Source: a phage | Reading direction: 5' to 3' (one strand) | NCBI GenBank assembly: GCA_021149145.1 | Contig: GCA_021149145.1_4322.1 | DNA: 34,803 nt | Shown here: positions 10,118-22,409 of the stretch, piece by piece | Layout: every line of letters starts with the position of its first letter | Position numbering within the stretch: the stretch's first letter is position 1 | Notes under the pieces: model-generated | What the model was told of the DNA's origin: nothing | The model's input: only the letters and a program-made list of their open reading frames with translations | The model's database searches: none | Program-made: the position numbers and the translations under genes

Positions 10118-10193
10118 TGGTGTTCCGCACTGGACTCGAACCAGTAACTAAGACTTAGGAGGTCTTTGCGTTATCCTGTTACGCCAGCAGAAC
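10118..10193 (-). tRNA. tRNA-Arg (anticodon CCU), CCA encoded
   Basis: Hand-folded 76-nt cloverleaf. Acceptor GTTCTGC/GCGGAAC has one G-U pair. D stem is GCGT/ACGC with GG in the loop. Anticodon stem is AAGAC/GTCTT with loop CT-CCT-AA. T arm is ACTGG-TTCGAGT-CCAGT, with discriminator A and CCA. Confidence 0.85.
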
Positions 10194-15431: not shown

Positions 15432-17015
15432 ATGTTTGATTTCAACGAAGATAAACTATCTGTTGAGCAGGTTATGGCAATCGCTGCCAATGACAACCTA
15501 CCACCGCTTCGCGTGGCTATTAATGCCAATGGCTATCGACAGTCTCAATCGTTCTGGAAAGCACCTGTCGAGATTGATACAGGTAATGATAAGTATCCAG
15601 TAATCTCACTCGGTAATGATATTGATGTTGTTGGTAAGCTATCGGCTAATATCGCTCGCTCGGTTCAGTTCCCTGAGTCGTCAGCTTACATGCACTTTCT
15701 TGGTTGTGTTTCTGCTGCAATGCTTGGGCGTTTTACTGTCGAGTATCATGGAACCCAACAGCCAACATCTTTGTACGTGGTAACAAGTCAGCCGCCTTCA
15801 ACTGGTAAATCAGCCATTAACTCGCTATCAATTGCGCCGATGATTGCTGAGACTGCGCGGTTGAATGAAGTACGTAAACGTGATCGAAAAAAGATTATGG
15901 CTAAACTGTCCGCTCTGGCTAAAGAGATGAAGCAGGAAAAATCACCTTCTGAAATGGCTTCACTTTTTGAGGAGAAGGAGGATTTAGAGGAGAAGCTCGA
16001 GAAGCTATGCGATATAGTATTCCCTGTCTCCGATACTACTCCGGAAGGTCTTGCGCGAATCAACAATCGCCAGGGTAGTTTTGCGGTAATCTCTGATGAG
16101 GCTACTAGCGTCAACTCACTGTTAGGCATGACTTACGGTGATGGCTCGAAGAAAACGAACAGCGAGCTCGTGCTGAAAGCATGGGATGCAGGTAATGTGT
16201 CAATTGCCCGTGCGAACGCAGAAAATAACATGAGCTTTGTGGCTATGGGATGCATCTCCGTAATTGCTCAGGATGAAACAATCAATGCCATTATGAATGC
16301 TGGTGCGCGTGGTATTGGTGTATCTGAGCGTTTCCTTCTGGTGCGTGAAAAATCATTTCTTGGCGACCGTGTATTTGTTGATGAAAATGGTGATTCAACC
16401 TATGAGGCTATTGATGGCGGCCTGAAAGCAGACTATTTCCGTCTTGTTCATGAGATTATGAATGAAGTTGAAGTGAAACTTACTGTAAGCGCGTCATCAA
16501 TGCGTTACCTTAACCGCGCTCGTCAAGAGATGGAGCCTCATCTTGGTGATGGTGGCAAGTATTCTCACACAATGTTGCGCGGTGCTCTTGGTAAGTTTGA
16601 TAAGCAAGCAATCCGCATCGCTTCTGTTCTGCACGTAATTCGTAACTGGTTCTCACCAGCCGGATCCAGCCCTCAAAAGTCAAGAGAGATTGAACTGGAT
16701 ACAATGCAGGAAGCGATTATGATTTTCAACGAACTAAGCAAGACTTATTTATCATCCGCTAGTGCTGCTGGTCATGCTGGTGACAATGCCGAGATGAACA
16801 AGCTGGTTGATATCCTGATTAAGCAGGGCAAGAATGGTAAAGGTGTTGTTGGTGTTCGCTCGTTGTATGAGGCTGCACGCAAGGTTAAACCTTTTGAAGG
16901 TCAGGCTGGAATTATGACTCGCATTAAGGACCACTTGATTCCTATGCTTGATGAGAAAAACTACACATGCCTGATTGGTGATAAAATTTACATTAATCCA
17001 CGATTGCTGGGGTAA
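15432..17015 (+). CDS. DUF3987/YfjI-like P-loop ATPase, putative replication protein
   Basis: 527 aa with Walker A SQPPSTGKSA and a Walker-B-like AVISDEA. It sits in the replication/early operon. Confidence 0.5.
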   Translation: MFDFNEDKLSVEQVMAIAANDNLPPLRVAINANGYRQSQSFWKAPVEIDTGNDKYPVISLGNDIDVVGKLSANIARSVQFPESSAYMHFLGCVSAAMLGRFTVEYHGTQQPTSLYVVTSQPPSTGKSAINSLSIAPMIAETARLNEVRKRDRKKIMAKLSALAKEMKQEKSPSEMASLFEEKEDLEEKLEKLCDIVFPVSDTTPEGLARINNRQGSFAVISDEATSVNSLLGMTYGDGSKKTNSELVLKAWDAGNVSIARANAENNMSFVAMGCISVIAQDETINAIMNAGARGIGVSERFLLVREKSFLGDRVFVDENGDSTYEAIDGGLKADYFRLVHEIMNEVEVKLTVSASSMRYLNRARQEMEPHLGDGGKYSHTMLRGALGKFDKQAIRIASVLHVIRNWFSPAGSSPQKSREIELDTMQEAIMIFNELSKTYLSSASAAGHAGDNAEMNKLVDILIKQGKNGKGVVGVRSLYEAARKVKPFEGQAGIMTRIKDHLIPMLDEKNYTCLIGDKIYINPRLLG

Positions 17016-17018
17016 TTT

Positions 17019-17360
17019 ATGTACCTGCTCGACCTGTATAATTTCTGCGAAGGATACAAGAACTTCAACCGCCAGCACCTGGCAAGATTCATCTATAAGC
17101 ACAAGGATTGCGCAAGGATGGCCAAGGCTGCCGGGGTTGATGAAAGGTATTTTGCCTCAAGTTGCTCGAAGGAGTTTATAGCGAGAATGCTTACGGCTGG
17201 GTATCTTGATGGGGTTAATGGAGTGTACTGGTGTAAGGGTTCAATTAAGCGACCATTTCAGTTTGAATTCATGAGCCTTGAAGGTAGGTCCAGTGATTAC
17301 GTCAGTGAGATGATGAACATAGCCAACATGAGTGATGACGAATTGTTTGCACAAAAATAG
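17019..17360 (+). CDS. hypothetical protein
   Basis: 113 aa, starting 1 nt after the upstream stop (TAA 17013-17015) and ending at the shared terminator. Confidence 0.5.
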   Translation: MYLLDLYNFCEGYKNFNRQHLARFIYKHKDCARMAKAAGVDERYFASSCSKEFIARMLTAGYLDGVNGVYWCKGSIKRPFQFEFMSLEGRSSDYVSEMMNIANMSDDELFAQK

Positions 17361-17381
17361 CCCCATTACGGGGCTTTTTTG
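17356..17381. terminator. terminator shared by convergent operons
   Basis: GCCCC-ATTAC-GGGGC followed by TTTTTT on the plus strand. The spanin stop codon (17366-17368) lies in the loop. Confidence 0.7.
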
Positions 17382-17752
17382 TTTTTCCTGAATATCATTA
17401 AGAGCAGAATGATGATGACGCAAAACATGATTCCACTCCCAATCCACGGGATTGCAGACGAATCATTGTTGGTGATTTCAATCTTCTCAGCCGTGATTGT
17501 TGATGCCTTGATTGAGTTATCAGAAGTCTTTTTACCGCTTGAACTATCAAGAGTGTCAACCTTAGAGTTCTTCACTTCAGCCTTTGCGCTGGAACTTGAA
17601 TCAACCTTATTAGTTAGCCCTACTCCAACCTTGTTATTCTCCGCACCTGCTTGAGCGCTAATCTCTGGCTTACTACCAATCAACCCGGCCAGCGCAGATG
17701 TTGCCGAGCAACCAGAAAGCAGAATTACCGCAGCAATTAATACAGCCTTCAT
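17366..17752 (-). CDS. unimolecular spanin (T1 gp11-type)
   Basis: N-terminal lipobox LLSGC, a Ser/Lys-rich periplasmic body and a C-terminal TM helix (GIMFCVIIILLLMIF). It is the last gene of the lysis cassette and overlaps the endolysin stop. Confidence 0.75.
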   Translation of the reverse strand: MKAVLIAAVILLSGCSATSALAGLIGSKPEISAQAGAENNKVGVGLTNKVDSSSSAKAEVKNSKVDTLDSSSGKKTSDNSIKASTITAEKIEITNNDSSAIPWIGSGIMFCVIIILLLMIFRKNKKAP

Positions 17753-18234
17753 TTACCCACCCCACTTAAGCATAATTTAATCTCCTCGTTGCGCCTGTTA
17801 ACGAGGCCTTTAACAACTTTTAGCTTGCCATTTACTCGAGCTTTATTCCAGGAGGCGAGAGCATTACAACCCTCTTCAATCTTGCCCTGATTAATCAGCT
17901 TAACAGCTGTTGACTTCCTCATTGCAGAACCGCCAACGTTGTAGCTAAAGCTGATTAACGCAGCCCTTGTTTCTGCAGCAATTGGATATGTAACTGCATC
18001 CTGCACATACTTGCCATGAATCTGAATGTGCTTCTCCAGTAAGTTCCTGCACTCCCTTGCACTGTACTTTTTACCCCACACTACATCAGGACCAGTGATA
18101 CCTGAACAAACCGTAGGAATGCCTGAAATGTCCATGTAAGGCCTGTATTCCACACCTTCTACTAGCTCAATAATCGGCGCTGCGATGTATATTGCCACAG
18201 CCGTCGCTGCACTAATTAACAACTTCCGCTTCAT
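17749..18234 (-). CDS. SAR endolysin (GH24 lysozyme-like)
   Basis: N-terminal weakly hydrophobic signal-anchor LLISAATAVAIYIAAPII, then an E-x8-D-x5-T catalytic spacing (EGVEYRPYMDISGIPT). Confidence 0.75.
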   Translation of the reverse strand: MKRKLLISAATAVAIYIAAPIIELVEGVEYRPYMDISGIPTVCSGITGPDVVWGKKYSARECRNLLEKHIQIHGKYVQDAVTYPIAAETRAALISFSYNVGGSAMRKSTAVKLINQGKIEEGCNALASWNKARVNGKLKVVKGLVNRRNEEIKLCLSGVGK

Positions 18235-18449
18235 TGCTTACTCCTGATATTGATAGCTGTCTTTAAATCACCCGACTCTAGAGCCTTCCTGATTGCCTGA
18301 CTGTCCTTAAACCTCCAATATGCTTCCCACAGCCAGAAAACAACAAAAGCCACAGTGCTGATTATTGCTATAGTCATTTGACCAGTTGCGGCACCAGTTA
18401 CAGCGGCCCCGCAGGTTGATGCCGTGGCGGCGTTAATTACTTCCCTCAT
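18231..18449 (-). CDS. holin
   Basis: The ATG at 18449 follows AAAGGTGA. The 72-aa protein has the hydrophobic helix MTIAIISTVAFVVFWLW and a charged C-terminus. It overlaps the endolysin start. Confidence 0.65.
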   Translation of the reverse strand: MREVINAATASTCGAAVTGAATGQMTIAIISTVAFVVFWLWEAYWRFKDSQAIRKALESGDLKTAINIRSKQ

Positions 18450-18525
18450 GTGATCACCTTTAAATCCTAATTTGTCAATACATAGTGCAAATATCATATA
18501 TTAGCACTTTCTGAATTGTAAGCAC

Positions 18526-18549
18526 AAAAAAAGGGAGCCAAAGGCCCCC
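18526..18549 (-). terminator. rho-independent terminator
   Basis: Minus strand reads GGGGGCC-TTT-GGCTCCC (one G-U pair) followed by TTTTTTT. It lies between the 57-aa ORF and the holin. Confidence 0.6.
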
Positions 18550-18576
18550 TGCTTGCAAATCTATGTTTTGTATATT

Positions 18577-18750
18577 CTATTCTGCGATAATAAATTCCAC
18601 CAAAGAGCCATCAATTGGCGCCAGGATGTGAGTCATATCGTCTCCGTAAATCTTGTAGTAACCATCTCCAAGCGACTCTCCGCTATAAGGTTGGCTCTCG
18701 GTAAAAGGCAGTGTCTTGGAGTTGTTTTTAACGCAGTATAATTTAGTCAT
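18577..18750 (-). CDS. 57-aa hypothetical protein (below the ORF-track cutoff)
   Basis: Translation is MTKLYCVKNNSKTLPFTESQPYSGESLGDGYYKIYGDDMTHILAPIDGSLVEFIIAE. It is a single gene between a cassette copy and a terminator. Confidence 0.5.
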   Translation of the reverse strand: MTKLYCVKNNSKTLPFTESQPYSGESLGDGYYKIYGDDMTHILAPIDGSLVEFIIAE

Positions 18751-18827
18751 TTTCGAACCCTCTGTTGTTTTCGATGTTGTGATTATGCCGCATCTCTACG
18801 GCGATTGTTTAGCAATTCGTGCTATTG
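18751..18827 (-). promoter_or_regulatory. promoter-leader cassette copy
   Basis: Minus strand reads AATAGCACGAATTGCTAAACAA..., CATAAT, then CACAACATCGAAAACAACAGAGGG and the ATG. Confidence 0.6.
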
Positions 18828-19363
18828 ATCACATCAATTACTATTTCTGTGGTTCTTTTAATATCACCTTCAATAACATCAATATCAATCTCCCTGGCGC
18901 AGACACCACTAAGATACGACCTACTATCTCCTTCGAAAGTGTATCCATGTCGATGAAGTCTAATTAATGTAACTTCAACACCTTCATCAATTAGTGGCTT
19001 AATCTCACTCGCGAACCCACCATCAGAACAAATGTAGCATCCATCACCAAGTGATTGCGCGAGCCTTTTACCAAAAACATCATCGCCAAAAACTGGCTTC
19101 ATCACTGATTCGCTAATCCAAATCATAAATTCACGAACAGTCATTCCACCAAGAAATTCGTGTGGTGATTCTTTGTACCCTCGGTCATCGTAATTATTAA
19201 TAAATCCATCAAACTCATCGCTTGATAGTATTCCTTTTGCAACATTAAACATTGGTGACTTGAATGAAACCTTATCCTTGCAAATTCCAAGATTAACAAT
19301 GATATCTGCAACTGTATCTTTTCCAGCACCAGGGGGTGCATTAATGATGATTAACTTTTTCAT
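18809..19363 (-). CDS. P-loop kinase, dNMP-kinase-like
   Basis: The start MKKLIIINAPPGAGKDT at 19363 has an N-terminal Walker A with the GKDT ending seen in T4/T5 dNMP kinases. The C-terminus INSTNC is encoded by the box. Confidence 0.55.
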   Translation of the reverse strand: MKKLIIINAPPGAGKDTVADIIVNLGICKDKVSFKSPMFNVAKGILSSDEFDGFINNYDDRGYKESPHEFLGGMTVREFMIWISESVMKPVFGDDVFGKRLAQSLGDGCYICSDGGFASEIKPLIDEGVEVTLIRLHRHGYTFEGDSRSYLSGVCAREIDIDVIEGDIKRTTEIVIDVINSTNC

Positions 19364-19364
19364 T

Positions 19365-19827
19365 TTATTCTCTGTGAGATTCGCAGTCTTTTGGTAATTC
19401 TTTATATTCACAAACTGACATTACAGTATATCCGCAATTCCTTAGGTGACTGATAACATTAGGATTATCCTCAAAGATTATCACACTTGCTTTGTCACCA
19501 TTACACAAATCATTTAGCCACATCTCTTTAATGATATAGTCATTTCTGTTATCCAATCTACTCCTCATATATATTCCATCATAATTAATATTATTATACT
19601 GAAGCCATTCAAGCGTCATACATTCGACTTCGTCACTTCTTGAAGTCATGATGTAAACTGGCGATAACTCAGCTAACGCATTCATCATGTATTATAGGTG
19701 AATCTCCAGAACAGGCTCTATTGTAATCACCCCAACTTGAAGTCAAGTGAAGGTCACTAGATGGTAAGAGGTAGCTTCTATGTTCATTGTTAGCAATAGT
19801 TCCATCAATATCAAACACGTAAATCAT
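19365..19827 (-). pseudogene. HAD-family phosphatase (Pnkp 3'-phosphatase-like) split by a 1-nt frameshift
   Basis: Fragment 19827-19669 reads MIYVFDIDGTIANNEHR... (HAD motif I) and stops. The ORF 19688-19365 in the next frame carries motifs II (IMTSR), III (K in IIKEMW) and IV (FEDNPN). The frames switch within CATGATGAATG. Confidence 0.6.
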
Positions 19828-19904
19828 TACAACTCCTCATCTCGTTATCGTTTATTCATTTTGCCTCAATCCTTTGAGGCTTTATTAACAAAAAAGTGCT
19901 ACTT
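19828..19904 (-). promoter_or_regulatory. promoter-leader cassette copy (variant)
   Basis: Minus strand reads AGTAGCACTTTTTTGTTAATAAA, the hairpin GCCTCAA-AGGA-TTGAGGC, ATGAAT, then AAACGATAACGAGATGAGGAG and the ATG. Confidence 0.5.
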
Positions 19905-21036
19905 AGAACATCTCAGGGCGACAAATAAATCGACCAACCTCACCAAAACGCTTATGGTAAACGATTACCGCTGCTTGACGCATTGAGCGCCATCCTCCAT
20001 TAGCTGAGTAGGCATCTGGCGCGCCAAGCTGACCATGAACTTCATCGATACCCAGGTTTGTTTCTGTAATTTTCTGACTATGCCAGTGGCCCGAGTGTGT
20101 ATAGACATATTTGCTGTTACCGAATAGTTTACGAAAGTCTGTAGCCATTACTGTAAGTCGAGTTTCAGCTTTTCGCATCTGGTGACCATGAGTATAACCA
20201 ATCAATGTTGAGCCGAAGCTTGTCATCAGCATTGCTGCTGGGCTTACGTCGACAGTAACTCGCTCCTCGTCTTCATAGAATGCCGCCAATGCTGCACGCA
20301 ACCAAACCATCCCAGCTTCGTCGTGATTTCCACTTATTACTTTAATATCAATGATTTGGTGCTTCTCAAGCATCCTTGAAACCGCACGACGCACTGAGCG
20401 GATTGCTACGTAAACCAATTTAGCATAGCGACTGTCGCTGTCTAAGATATGTCCTGATGCTGGTGTTTTAGCCTCTAGAGAGTCGTAATGCAGAAAATCA
20501 CCCCCCAAAACTAATGTCGCATTTCTTGATTTAGGAGCCTTATCTACAGCATAATCAAAGAAGCCATTCATTACCTTCTCTGCTGTTGCAGTGTCGTAGT
20601 TTTCACCGCACTCATGCTTATGAGCCATTGCGCCAATGTGAAGGTCGAAAACAGGATACATAGCCATAGTGTCATCGTCAAAATCAATGTCTGGGCACTC
20701 GCTGGCAATTGCCTTTGGTAAATCAGAACAGAAGGCTTCACGCGCTTGCTCAAGCAGAATCTCAAGGCGTTCATTATCAACGCTTGTCTTAACCCACCGG
20801 ATTTTCTCATTCCCTTCCGCATCAATCATGGTAGAAGTGCCTTTTACCATGTATCCATCTGGCACTAGCTTCTTGATACCTTCATTACCATGCCCAACAC
20901 CACTCTTGGCTAACTTGCTGCGACGAAGCTCAACGTTGCGAATGTTCATGCCGTACTTCTCTGCAATTGCCTTGTTAGTCAGGCCATTCTTCAATTCTTC
21001 AGTTAACTGTTCATTTGTAATCTTTGCTACTGCCAT
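19903..21036 (-). CDS. HTH domain fused to a calcineurin-like metallophosphoesterase
   Basis: The N-terminus has LTNKAIAEKYGMNIRNVELRRSKL. The remainder has the phosphoesterase motifs DLHIG, GGDFLH, GNHD and GHxH (THGH, HSGHWH). Confidence 0.65.
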   Translation of the reverse strand: MAVAKITNEQLTEELKNGLTNKAIAEKYGMNIRNVELRRSKLAKSGVGHGNEGIKKLVPDGYMVKGTSTMIDAEGNEKIRWVKTSVDNERLEILLEQAREAFCSDLPKAIASECPDIDFDDDTMAMYPVFDLHIGAMAHKHECGENYDTATAEKVMNGFFDYAVDKAPKSRNATLVLGGDFLHYDSLEAKTPASGHILDSDSRYAKLVYVAIRSVRRAVSRMLEKHQIIDIKVISGNHDEAGMVWLRAALAAFYEDEERVTVDVSPAAMLMTSFGSTLIGYTHGHQMRKAETRLTVMATDFRKLFGNSKYVYTHSGHWHSQKITETNLGIDEVHGQLGAPDAYSANGGWRSMRQAAVIVYHKRFGEVGRFICRPEMF

Positions 21037-21085
21037 TTTTAAGTCCTTAGTTCATCACGATAAAATATAAGATAGTAAAGCTAAA

Positions 21086-21104
21086 CAGTGGCACTAATGC
21101 TACT
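21086..21104. promoter_or_regulatory. degenerate copy of the palindromic box
   Basis: CAGTGGCACTAATGCTACT lies in the 81-nt gap upstream of the phosphoesterase gene. On the minus strand it is followed by TTTAGC...TATATT. Confidence 0.35.
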
Positions 21105-21117
21105 GGGGCGGCGTACT

Positions 21118-21369
21118 TCATACAACCTCTTTCAGCCAGTAATCAATTAAATCAGCACTAATTGCTAATTTTTGGTCCAGGTCTGTCATGCACAGATTAC
21201 CGCACGCTGGAGAGTAGTAAATCTGTACCCATTTACCGTCCTTCGTCTTCGCGTTAACATCCACATAGTCAGGTGGAAACCAGTCATCAATAGGTATCGC
21301 TCTAAACTTCTTCCCACTATCACTATGCACTAAATTATAATGCTCAGGCTGAAAATCTAATCCCAACAT
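21118..21369 (-). CDS. hypothetical protein
   Basis: 83-aa ORF. Confidence 0.45.
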   Translation of the reverse strand: MLGLDFQPEHYNLVHSDSGKKFRAIPIDDWFPPDYVDVNAKTKDGKWVQIYYSPACGNLCMTDLDQKLAISADLIDYWLKEVV

Positions 21370-21371
21370 AA

Positions 21372-21614
21372 CTAAACCTTCGTTATCTTAAATTTGAATC
21401 CCTTCTCTTTCAGGAACTCATTCGTGTTTATCGTGACGCCAGGTTTAACCCTGACATACTTGCGCGGCCTTTCATCCATGTACGTAAACTTACCGTTGAA
21501 GATGACACTGATATCTTTTATATCGAAGTACTTAGATATCATCTTAATGTCGTCCTGAATGCCAGCATCTGCGCAGTGGGCCCAGACTGCGGCCCGTCCT
21601 GTTTCAACTATCAT
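21372..21614 (-). CDS. hypothetical protein
   Basis: 80-aa ORF whose ATG overlaps the upstream stop (ATGA). Confidence 0.45.
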   Translation of the reverse strand: MIVETGRAAVWAHCADAGIQDDIKMISKYFDIKDISVIFNGKFTYMDERPRKYVRVKPGVTINTNEFLKEKGFKFKITKV

Positions 21615-21736
21615 AAGCCGTATGCCATTTTCAGGTATTCTTTAGCACACATCCATGACCATTCTGATTTATTCTTAACAGCATCAATAGCGTAAACCTG
21701 TGCAATATCGAGCATCTCTTTATCTACAATTTTCAT
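21611..21736 (-). CDS. 41-aa hypothetical protein (below the ORF-track cutoff)
   Basis: Translation is MKIVDKEMLDIAQVYAIDAVKNKSEWSWMCAKEYLKMAYGL, with ATGA coupling at both ends. Confidence 0.4.
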   Translation of the reverse strand: MKIVDKEMLDIAQVYAIDAVKNKSEWSWMCAKEYLKMAYGL

Positions 21737-21903
21737 CAGTTCAATACCTCACATTCAAAACTAAAAACAATCATATCGTCATAATCAGTTAAGTAGAAAG
21801 CTGTGCCATCAAAGCTCTTCTCAGCCTCAAGCACGGTTTTACCGCCATTGCTTTTAATCCAGTTCGATAATGCCATCGTTGGGTTTGTTATTACGATTTT
21901 CAT
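21736..21903 (-). CDS. 55-aa hypothetical protein (below the ORF-track cutoff)
   Basis: Translation is MKIVITNPTMALSNWIKSNGGKTVLEAEKSFDGTAFYLTDYDDMIVFSFECEVLN, with TAATG coupling upstream. Confidence 0.4.
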   Translation of the reverse strand: MKIVITNPTMALSNWIKSNGGKTVLEAEKSFDGTAFYLTDYDDMIVFSFECEVLN

Positions 21904-22124
21904 TATTCAAAATCCCCCTTGCAATCTTTCTTCATCTCTGCAATATCTGCAACCATGCGGTCGCGCCACGTCTCGATATCAGTTCGCAAGTAATCTTCTT
22001 CAAAACTGTAATCAAGGCACCGGGCCAAATCCCAAACATCACCTTTATATCCAGCCTTGTGTAATTCCTGGGCCGCCATCGCCTGAAAGAGTTCCCATTG
22101 CTTGTCAAAAGTTAAAATTGCCAT
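21903..22124 (-). CDS. hypothetical protein
   Basis: 73-aa ORF. Confidence 0.45.
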   Translation of the reverse strand: MAILTFDKQWELFQAMAAQELHKAGYKGDVWDLARCLDYSFEEDYLRTDIETWRDRMVADIAEMKKDCKGDFE

Positions 22125-22129
22125 TACTC

Positions 22130-22324
22130 CTATACCTCATCAAATTTTTCGCCGAATTCGTTTTTAACAGTTTCCAGATCATGTTTGTAAGTTGGGCTAA
22201 CTTCGAATGCATATGTGCAGTCTTCAATGTCAACCAAAACATAACCATCTTCAGTTACTTGCATCTCGTAGATGTAGCCAGTCTTGCGTGATTCGTAGAA
22301 TTTACCAGTATAGATAGTAGCCAT
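22130..22324 (-). CDS. hypothetical protein
   Basis: 64-aa ORF, the first gene after a cassette copy. Confidence 0.5.
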   Translation of the reverse strand: MATIYTGKFYESRKTGYIYEMQVTEDGYVLVDIEDCTYAFEVSPTYKHDLETVKNEFGEKFDEV

Positions 22325-22409
22325 TTTCTTTCTCTCTTTGTGTGTTTCGTTTCGATGAGTTGATAATACACCAACTCACCAGTTCGTCTTTGGAAATTCG
22401 TGCTATTTT
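22325..22409 (-). promoter_or_regulatory. promoter-leader cassette copy
   Basis: Minus strand reads AATAGCACGAATTTCCAAAGACG, 16 nt, TATTAT, then CAACTCATCGAAACGAAACACACAAAGAGAG and the ATG. The TAG in the box is the VRR-NUC stop. Confidence 0.6.

Follow-up and report, generated by a model that had tools for sequence, protein, structure and literature searches.

A private 11-nt deletion most likely leaves a Pnkp-type 3'-phosphatase gene as a pseudogene beside an intact dNMP kinase gene in a T1-like coliphage

The phage contig GCA_021149145.1_4322.1 (GenBank assembly GCA_021149145.1; 34,803 nt, the whole of which is called the window here) is placed by megablast among the T1-like coliphages (Drexlerviridae, Braunvirinae). 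Between positions 18,809 and 19,827 it carries a gene for a HAD-type phosphatase, broken into two open reading frames (ORFs) by the loss of 11 nt, and directly after it an intact gene for a P-loop kinase. The deletion is most likely a recent, strain-specific inactivation that has turned the phosphatase gene into a pseudogene. In relatives where both genes are intact, the pair would serve nucleotide salvage as part of a gene string common in the Drexlerviridae. Taken as a whole, this explanation is one we hold with good confidence. The features that carry it are the following:

19669 to 19827, minus strand: N-terminal fragment of the HAD_PNKP pseudogene, 52 amino acids (aa), beginning MIYVFDIDGTIANNEHR; recognized as an ORF and in alignments to relatives.
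19690 to 19691, minus strand: junction of the 11-nt deletion, where TCCAATGATAA is missing (CCCAATGATAA in more distant relatives); located by alignments to relatives.
19365 to 19688, minus strand: C-terminal fragment of the HAD_PNKP pseudogene, 107 aa; Pfam HAD_PNKP, 35.8 bits.
18809 to 19363, minus strand: intact 184-aa P-loop kinase, predicted to be a deoxynucleoside monophosphate (dNMP) kinase of the T4 gp1 type, beginning MKKLIIINAPPGAGKDT; phrog_139.

In the 52-aa ORF (19827 to 19669) the first 45 residues are native and contain motif I (D6-I-D8-G-T10); seven out-of-frame residues and a TGA stop follow. The 107-aa ORF (19688 to 19365) holds IMTSR, RLDNRNDYIIKEMW and FEDNPN, which in the numbering of the intact 157-aa protein comprise motif II with T65, the block R92/D96/R98/D100/K104, and motif IV with E123-D124. 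The HAD motifs are thus not on one continuous polypeptide, motif I being in the first ORF and motifs II to IV in the second. The frame of the second is +1 relative to the first because the loss of 11 nt equals a +1 shift. A reading made from the sequence alone had given these ORF coordinates, motifs (DxDGT, IMTSR, the lysine string and FEDNPN) and frame offset correctly, but it placed a 1-nt frameshift inside CATGATGAATG; the alignments to relatives show instead an 11-nt deletion immediately 5' of that string. About four codons of the IPMIN region are lost, and the frame is shifted. The lost codons include that of the invariant I49, which lies at the beginning of helix 46-56 in the predicted structure.

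The missing 11 nt (CCCAATGATAA) are present in all five aligned relatives (ES, AN_ECEAS, SU57, OzMSK and FP). Looking up the exact sequence of the window's kinase gave the two closest contigs (NCBI DAFIFY010000039.1 and Logan DRR314303_226), which match window positions 15810 to 22353 at 99.3-99.4% identity and both encode an intact 157-aa phosphatase. Only two differences from the window fall within their phosphatase gene: the 11-nt indel (TCCAATGATAA, located between 19691 and 19690) and a G to A change at 19373. The remaining differences over 6.5 kb are 25 substitutions and two single-T indels in intergenic T-runs. In a database of 5.8 billion proteins, full-length homologues are 156-158 aa long. 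The sequence-only reading had envisaged relatives in which the phosphatase is naturally encoded by two genes; in all 70 IMG/VR loci that carry the gene it is a single ORF spanning the whole profile, and the two-frame arrangement is seen in no relative examined. Exact-sequence look-ups of the 52-aa, 107-aa and 106-aa fragment products gave no record of the deletion allele elsewhere. Because the deletion is private to the window and all close relatives keep one intact 157-aa gene, the locus is best read as a pseudogene and, to judge from these comparisons, is neither a programmed recoding site nor a natural two-gene split. Among the outcomes that the sequence-only reading had entertained, inactivation (or an assembly error) thus stands and recoding falls.

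The G to A change at 19373, in which the window differs from all relatives, converts the codon of the invariant Gly156 of the HAD protein to one for Arg and changes the Shine-Dalgarno (SD) sequence of the kinase gene from GGAG to AGAG. It is probably of little weight, as one substitution in the gene is within the background divergence. Microhomology-mediated slippage was considered as the mechanism of the deletion and rejected: an imperfect ATAA is all that the flanks have in common, the junction is not shiftable, and there is no clear repeat-mediated route. Two candidates for further disrupted copies were likewise set aside. P0100 (106 aa) is merely cut by the end of its contig. The copy in ES, for which only a 192-nt coding sequence is annotated, equals the intact AN_ECEAS copy at every aligned position of the DNA, and the annotation is a poor gene call. 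In the public record of ES (OR466728.1, 3852-4325), besides this short HAD call, the 57-aa neighbour bears the name 'tail tip protein'; both are faults of annotation and not disruptions.

A second broken phosphatase gene is found in the Logan contig ERR2241898_113442 (370-921), from an FP-like lineage. This copy (P0102, 88 aa) has TCA changed to TAA at Ser30, GGA changed to TGA at Gly136, and an R67K replacement at an invariant arginine; the 184-aa kinase downstream is intact, so that both broken alleles retain an intact dNMP kinase. It is the only relative examined without an intact phosphatase of the 157-aa type, and it does not share the 11-nt deletion. Because the gene is absent in some lineages and two independent broken alleles are found, the phosphatase step appears to be dispensable. 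One may also imagine that its loss is recurrent and adaptive rather than neutral, with the broken alleles as escape mutants, but we give this hardly any credence. The phosphatase could be conditionally harmful, for example if it or its product is sensed by host defence, or if it wastes nucleotides in some hosts.

The intact 157-aa protein is, as judged by its Pfam score, profile comparison and fold, a stand-alone HAD 3'-phosphatase of the Pnkp type. Pfam HAD_PNKP (PF25109, gathering cut-off 27.6 bits) scores 56.0 bits on the AN_ECEAS protein and 59.6 bits on that of SU57, both above the cut-off. Of the window's fragments taken alone, the C-terminal one exceeds it (35.8 bits) and the N-terminal one falls below it (15.9 bits). 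The intact orthologue belongs to phrog_415; a further match is to the C-terminal half of phrog_505, which is the family of T4-like Pnkp. A single-sequence search against PDB sequences gave nothing significant; the family profile gave Pnkp1 (4xrp, E 1e-9) and T4 Pnkp (5uj0, 1ltq). With hhalign the phosphatase aligns to residues 162-298 of T4 Pnkp at a probability of 95%, and its fold is closest to the solved Pnkp phosphatase domains.

The residues expected of such an enzyme are conserved. D6-I-D8-G-T10, T65, K104 and E123-D124 are invariant across the family alignments, as is Gly156. In the profile alignments D6, D8, T65, K104 and D124 correspond to D165, D167, S211, K258 and D278 of T4 Pnkp, in which D165 is the nucleophile, D167 acts in acid-base catalysis and D278 is a Mg ligand, with S211 and K258 completing the set (Das and Shuman, PMC3592404). 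The R-x-D-x-R-x-D...K block corresponds to R246, D250, R252, D254 and K258 of the T4 enzyme; the sequence-only reading had placed the protein with the 3'-phosphatase domain of T4 Pnkp from this block, and the HAD_PNKP score, the PDB profile search and hhalign bear that placement out. The database name 'polynucleotide kinase' is a misnomer for the stand-alone phosphatase, because the protein holds the phosphatase domain only. A homologue of this kind, 158 aa long and 42% identical, is found in phage JSE (T4-like Krischvirus, NC_012740.1, 3001-3477). It too stands alone and is labelled 'polynucleotide kinase' while holding only the phosphatase domain; its start overlaps the stop of nrdB, and denA and rnlA lie downstream.

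The neighbouring gene was assigned by fold search and by hhalign against the true T4 sequences. PHROGs places its product in phrog_139, 'deoxynucleoside monophosphate kinase' (E 3.4e-43, residues 1-163); the P-loop G-x-x-G-K-D-T is present, and the NMP-kinase fold is closest to 1DEK. Against T4 gp1 the alignment of the family profile extends over 137 columns (E 1.2e-5); against T4 Pnkp it covers only a 27-residue Walker A stretch. Because of this difference the neighbour is, on profile evidence, a gp1-type dNMP kinase and not the kinase half of Pnkp. A 5'-kinase domain of the type found at the N terminus of Pnkp, whether fused or as a neighbour, was not found at the locus. Against PDB sequences, a single-sequence search with the kinase gave nothing significant, and its family profile gave matches at the level of Walker A only. 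The dNMP-kinase type that the sequence-only reading had assigned to this P-loop protein thus agrees with phrog_139, with the fold and with the alignment to T4 gp1. The ATG of the kinase gene (19363) lies one base past the TAA stop (19367 to 19365) of the 107-aa ORF. Expression of the kinase in the window may be lower than in the relatives, as the SD is weakened to AGAG and the premature stop upstream removes translational coupling.

The association of the two genes was followed across 80 IMG/VR loci with a kinase homologue. In 70 of them the phosphatase gene lies upstream of the kinase gene on the same strand; in these 70 the two are directly adjacent in 44 (gap -9 to 109 nt) and 0.5-2 kb apart in 26. 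In the other ten, the kinase has no HAD gene within 5 kb. The two genes are fused in none of the 70 loci. The intact fused frame that the sequence-only reading had proposed to seek in relatives is found there for the phosphatase, as the stand-alone 157-aa gene. By tblastn, 1444 phage records contain the kinase and 1171 the phosphatase. According to a 2026 paper on T1-like phages, the genes that most often stand directly behind the DNA repair exonuclease gene in Drexlerviridae without the SH3 protein are those for PNK and dNMP kinase; its authors propose that they extend the replication module through an improved nucleotide supply (PMC13164509). The pair of phosphatase and dNMP kinase genes is thus already known: it is annotated, and the literature treats it as a module for nucleotide supply. 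Defence papers on retron Eco2 and PUA-Cal-HAD were also considered and have no bearing on the phosphatase or kinase genes.

A model for the intact relatives follows the order of the genes. The string of exonuclease, 3'-phosphatase and dNMP kinase would recycle degraded DNA into deoxynucleoside diphosphates (dNDPs). In this scheme DNA ends, oligonucleotides or 3'-dNMPs would lose their 3'-phosphates to the phosphatase, and 5'-dNMPs would be turned by the kinase into dNDPs that feed phage DNA synthesis. T4 Pnkp acts efficiently on 3'-dNMPs, with a turnover of 24 per second for 3'-dTMP (PMC3592404). Nucleotide salvage seems the better inference when set against a split Pnkp that counters anticodon nucleases, and of the two roles offered by the sequence-only reading, dNMP metabolism is the better supported.

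Several points weigh against the explanation as a whole. The proposed substrates (DNA ends with 3'-phosphates, 3'-dNMPs, RNA ends) would have to carry over from homologues that are only 17-25% identical. The closeness of the two genes could mean conserved synteny and not a shared pathway, the genes being 0.5-2 kb apart in 26 of the 70 loci. The kinase has no Pfam or NCBIfam match above the curated cut-offs (sub-threshold only: AAA_18, with 15.1 of the required 29.4 bits, and adenylate kinase, with 12.5 of 195). Lastly, there may be an assembly or consensus error at the junction, which is less likely, since an 11-nt gap outside a homopolymer is atypical of such errors.

This last point deserves a fuller account, as it would mean that the real phage has an intact 157-aa gene. 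The deletion allele is on record nowhere else, and the nearest relatives are identical in the phosphatase gene save for the indel and one base, as would be expected of an artefact of sequencing or assembly. The gap of 11 nt, however, lies in non-repetitive sequence and is not a homopolymer slip; relative to L008, one of the two closest contigs, the other indels are single-T differences in intergenic T-runs only, and all else is 25 ordinary substitutions in 6.5 kb. The independent broken allele in another lineage also shows that natural loss occurs. We regard an artefact as improbable. The opposite possibility, that the split gene is functional, either through a programmed +1 frameshift product or through two peptides that reassemble into an active HAD enzyme, has a probability that we take to be as good as negligible. 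No catalytic residue has been lost from the coding sequence: the first ORF has D6 and D8, the second T65, K104 and D124. The second ORF also opens with ATGATG, and the two ORFs share 20 nt. No relative has this arrangement, however, and the overlap (19688 to 19669) contains neither a slippery heptamer nor a homopolymer. A frameshift product would still be about four residues short, among them the invariant I49 early in helix 46-56, and the second ATG has no usable SD within range, the nearest GGAG being 15 nt upstream. Recent inactivation of the phosphatase gene remains our reading of the lesion.

The role of the intact pair can be argued separately from the lesion. If the two proteins formed a split T4-Pnkp-like system, with a 5'-kinase and a 3'-phosphatase that together heal tRNA cut by host anticodon nucleases, as the sequence-only reading had suggested, then it would be fitting that the phosphatase is a true member of the Pnkp family, that in 44 of the 80 loci a translationally adjacent gene encodes a P-loop kinase, and that the best PDB relative, Pnkp1, comes from a bacterial RNA repair complex. 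The absence of any fusion in the 70 loci speaks against such a system, as does the ligase content: the curated complete genome of OzMSK has no annotated RNA ligase, DNA ligase or polymerase, and the window, which accounts for 34.8 kb of some 46-48 kb of genome, was not scanned exhaustively for ligases. We consider tRNA end healing very unlikely. Healing of DNA ends has more to commend it, though we still think it unlikely. Here the intact phosphatase would act on 3'-phosphates at phage nicks, preparing them for the host polymerase and LigA, and its link to the kinase would be only syntenic. DNA 3'-phosphates are substrates of T4 Pnkp as well. The protein has the fold and residues of the Pnkp family, and its gene adjoins a 'DNA repair exonuclease' gene in the replication/recombination region; yet the tight translational coupling to the dNMP kinase in 44 of the 80 loci and the coupling to nrdB in JSE favour nucleotide metabolism. 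DNA-end healing is compatible with the pseudogene verdict for the window. No rival explanation is favoured over nucleotide salvage by an intact pair and strain-specific loss of the phosphatase in the window.

Every gene of the module lies on the minus strand. The further features of the string are as follows:

19903 to 21036, minus strand: gene for a 377-aa metallophosphoesterase with an N-terminal helix-turn-helix (HTH), upstream in the same string; phrog_704 (E 5e-151), with weak Pfam Metallophos and HTH_24 matches.
19863 to 19880, minus strand: conserved intergenic hairpin between the exonuclease gene and the HAD gene; RNA fold z-score -2.75.
19370 to 19373, minus strand: SD of the kinase gene, AGAG; identified by comparison with relatives.
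18577 to 18750, minus strand: conserved 57-aa gene (DUF7244, phrog_4788), 3' of the kinase gene and the last before the terminator; Pfam PF23896 on homologous genes.
18532 to 18550, minus strand: intrinsic-terminator-like hairpin and T-run that close the string before the holin gene; 8-bp stem with 6 GC pairs, then TTTTTTT.

By megablast the nearest deposited genomes over the locus are ES and AN_ECEAS (93.5% identity), followed by SU57, OzMSK/Msk and FP (~77%). In all of these the gene order is 377-aa metallophosphoesterase, 157-aa phosphatase, 184-aa P-loop protein, 57-aa gene, holin, endolysin and spanin. The relatives' annotations label the 377-aa protein 'DNA repair exonuclease', the 157-aa protein 'polynucleotide kinase/phosphatase' or 'acid phosphatase', and the 184-aa protein 'ATPase' or 'P-loop NTPase'. 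Elsewhere in the window there is a tRNA-Arg gene with anticodon CCT (10118-10193, minus strand), and OzMSK likewise annotates a tRNA-Arg. In phages of the TR1, TR2, TR3, CY1 and Rao1 types the kinase gene is ~87% identical in DNA to that of the window. This similarity ends exactly at the HAD stop (window position 19369), and these phages carry in place of the phosphatase gene a different, 182-aa HAD_PNKP variant with 41% protein identity. The junction between the HAD and kinase genes is thus a mosaic boundary, consistent with exchange of phosphatase cassettes.

The sequence-only reading had described the region as an AT-rich accessory module framed by two cassette promoters. The first part of this description holds: the GC content of the module is 36.3%, against 43.5 +/- 2.6% in segments of the same length, among which it falls within the lowest 0.3%, and the module looks accessory. 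The promoters find no support. A sigma-70 consensus scan gave 11 sites where 7.8 +/- 2.5 are expected, which is chance level, with none in 19828-19902, and a direct-repeat search found no repeated promoter-like family framing the module. The intergenic segment 19828-19902 is almost invariant even in relatives that are only ~77% identical in coding DNA. The hairpin within it (19863-19880) reads GCCUCAA-AGGA-UUGAGGC; it has no U-run in the mRNA sense, and the plus strand scores as terminator-like.

There is little new biology in a routinely annotated Drexlerviridae module that carries a private deletion, and the consequences are mainly practical. For annotators, 19365-19827 should be entered as one pseudogene in place of two hypothetical genes; for the intact gene the name 'polynucleotide kinase' is to be avoided, and its neighbour should be treated as a dNMP kinase and not as the missing half of Pnkp. 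For experiment, the phage is a natural phosphatase knock-out, and with its 99.3-99.4%-identical relatives it makes up a near-isogenic pair for probing the stand-alone Pnkp-type phosphatase in T1-like phages.

The components resemble several known systems to different degrees. The phosphatase domain of T4 Pnkp (pseT; 1LTQ, 5UJ0; PF25109) is one of these, but the protein here is a stand-alone one of 157 aa with no fused kinase domain and ~18-25% identity; its gene comes before that of the neighbouring kinase, the reverse of the order in T4 Pnkp, and in the window it is broken. Pnkp1 of Capnocytophaga gingivalis, from the Pnkp1-Rnl-Hen1 RNA repair complex (4XRP), is a 312-aa kinase-phosphatase fusion whose partners are an RNA ligase and Hen1, neither of which is annotated in the curated relative OzMSK. 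The putative acid phosphatase Pap of phage P1 is similar over its whole length to the OzMSK orthologue, according to the BLASTp result given by the annotators of that genome (E 4e-17); to our knowledge the substrate of Pap is not established either. The kinase compares with the T4 gp1 dNMP kinase (1DEK) at ~17-21% identity, and is shorter (184 aa against 241 aa), being without the T4 insertion. The closest likeness is with the pair in other Drexlerviridae (SU57_00064/00065; AN_ECEAS XES82154/XES82155; OzMSK_059/060), which has the same order and strand, 77-94% identical DNA, and the same position as in the window, after the exonuclease gene and before the lysis cassette. From this pair the window differs in that its phosphatase is split by the deletion into ORFs of 52 and 107 aa, and in that the SD of its kinase gene is AGAG and not GGAG.

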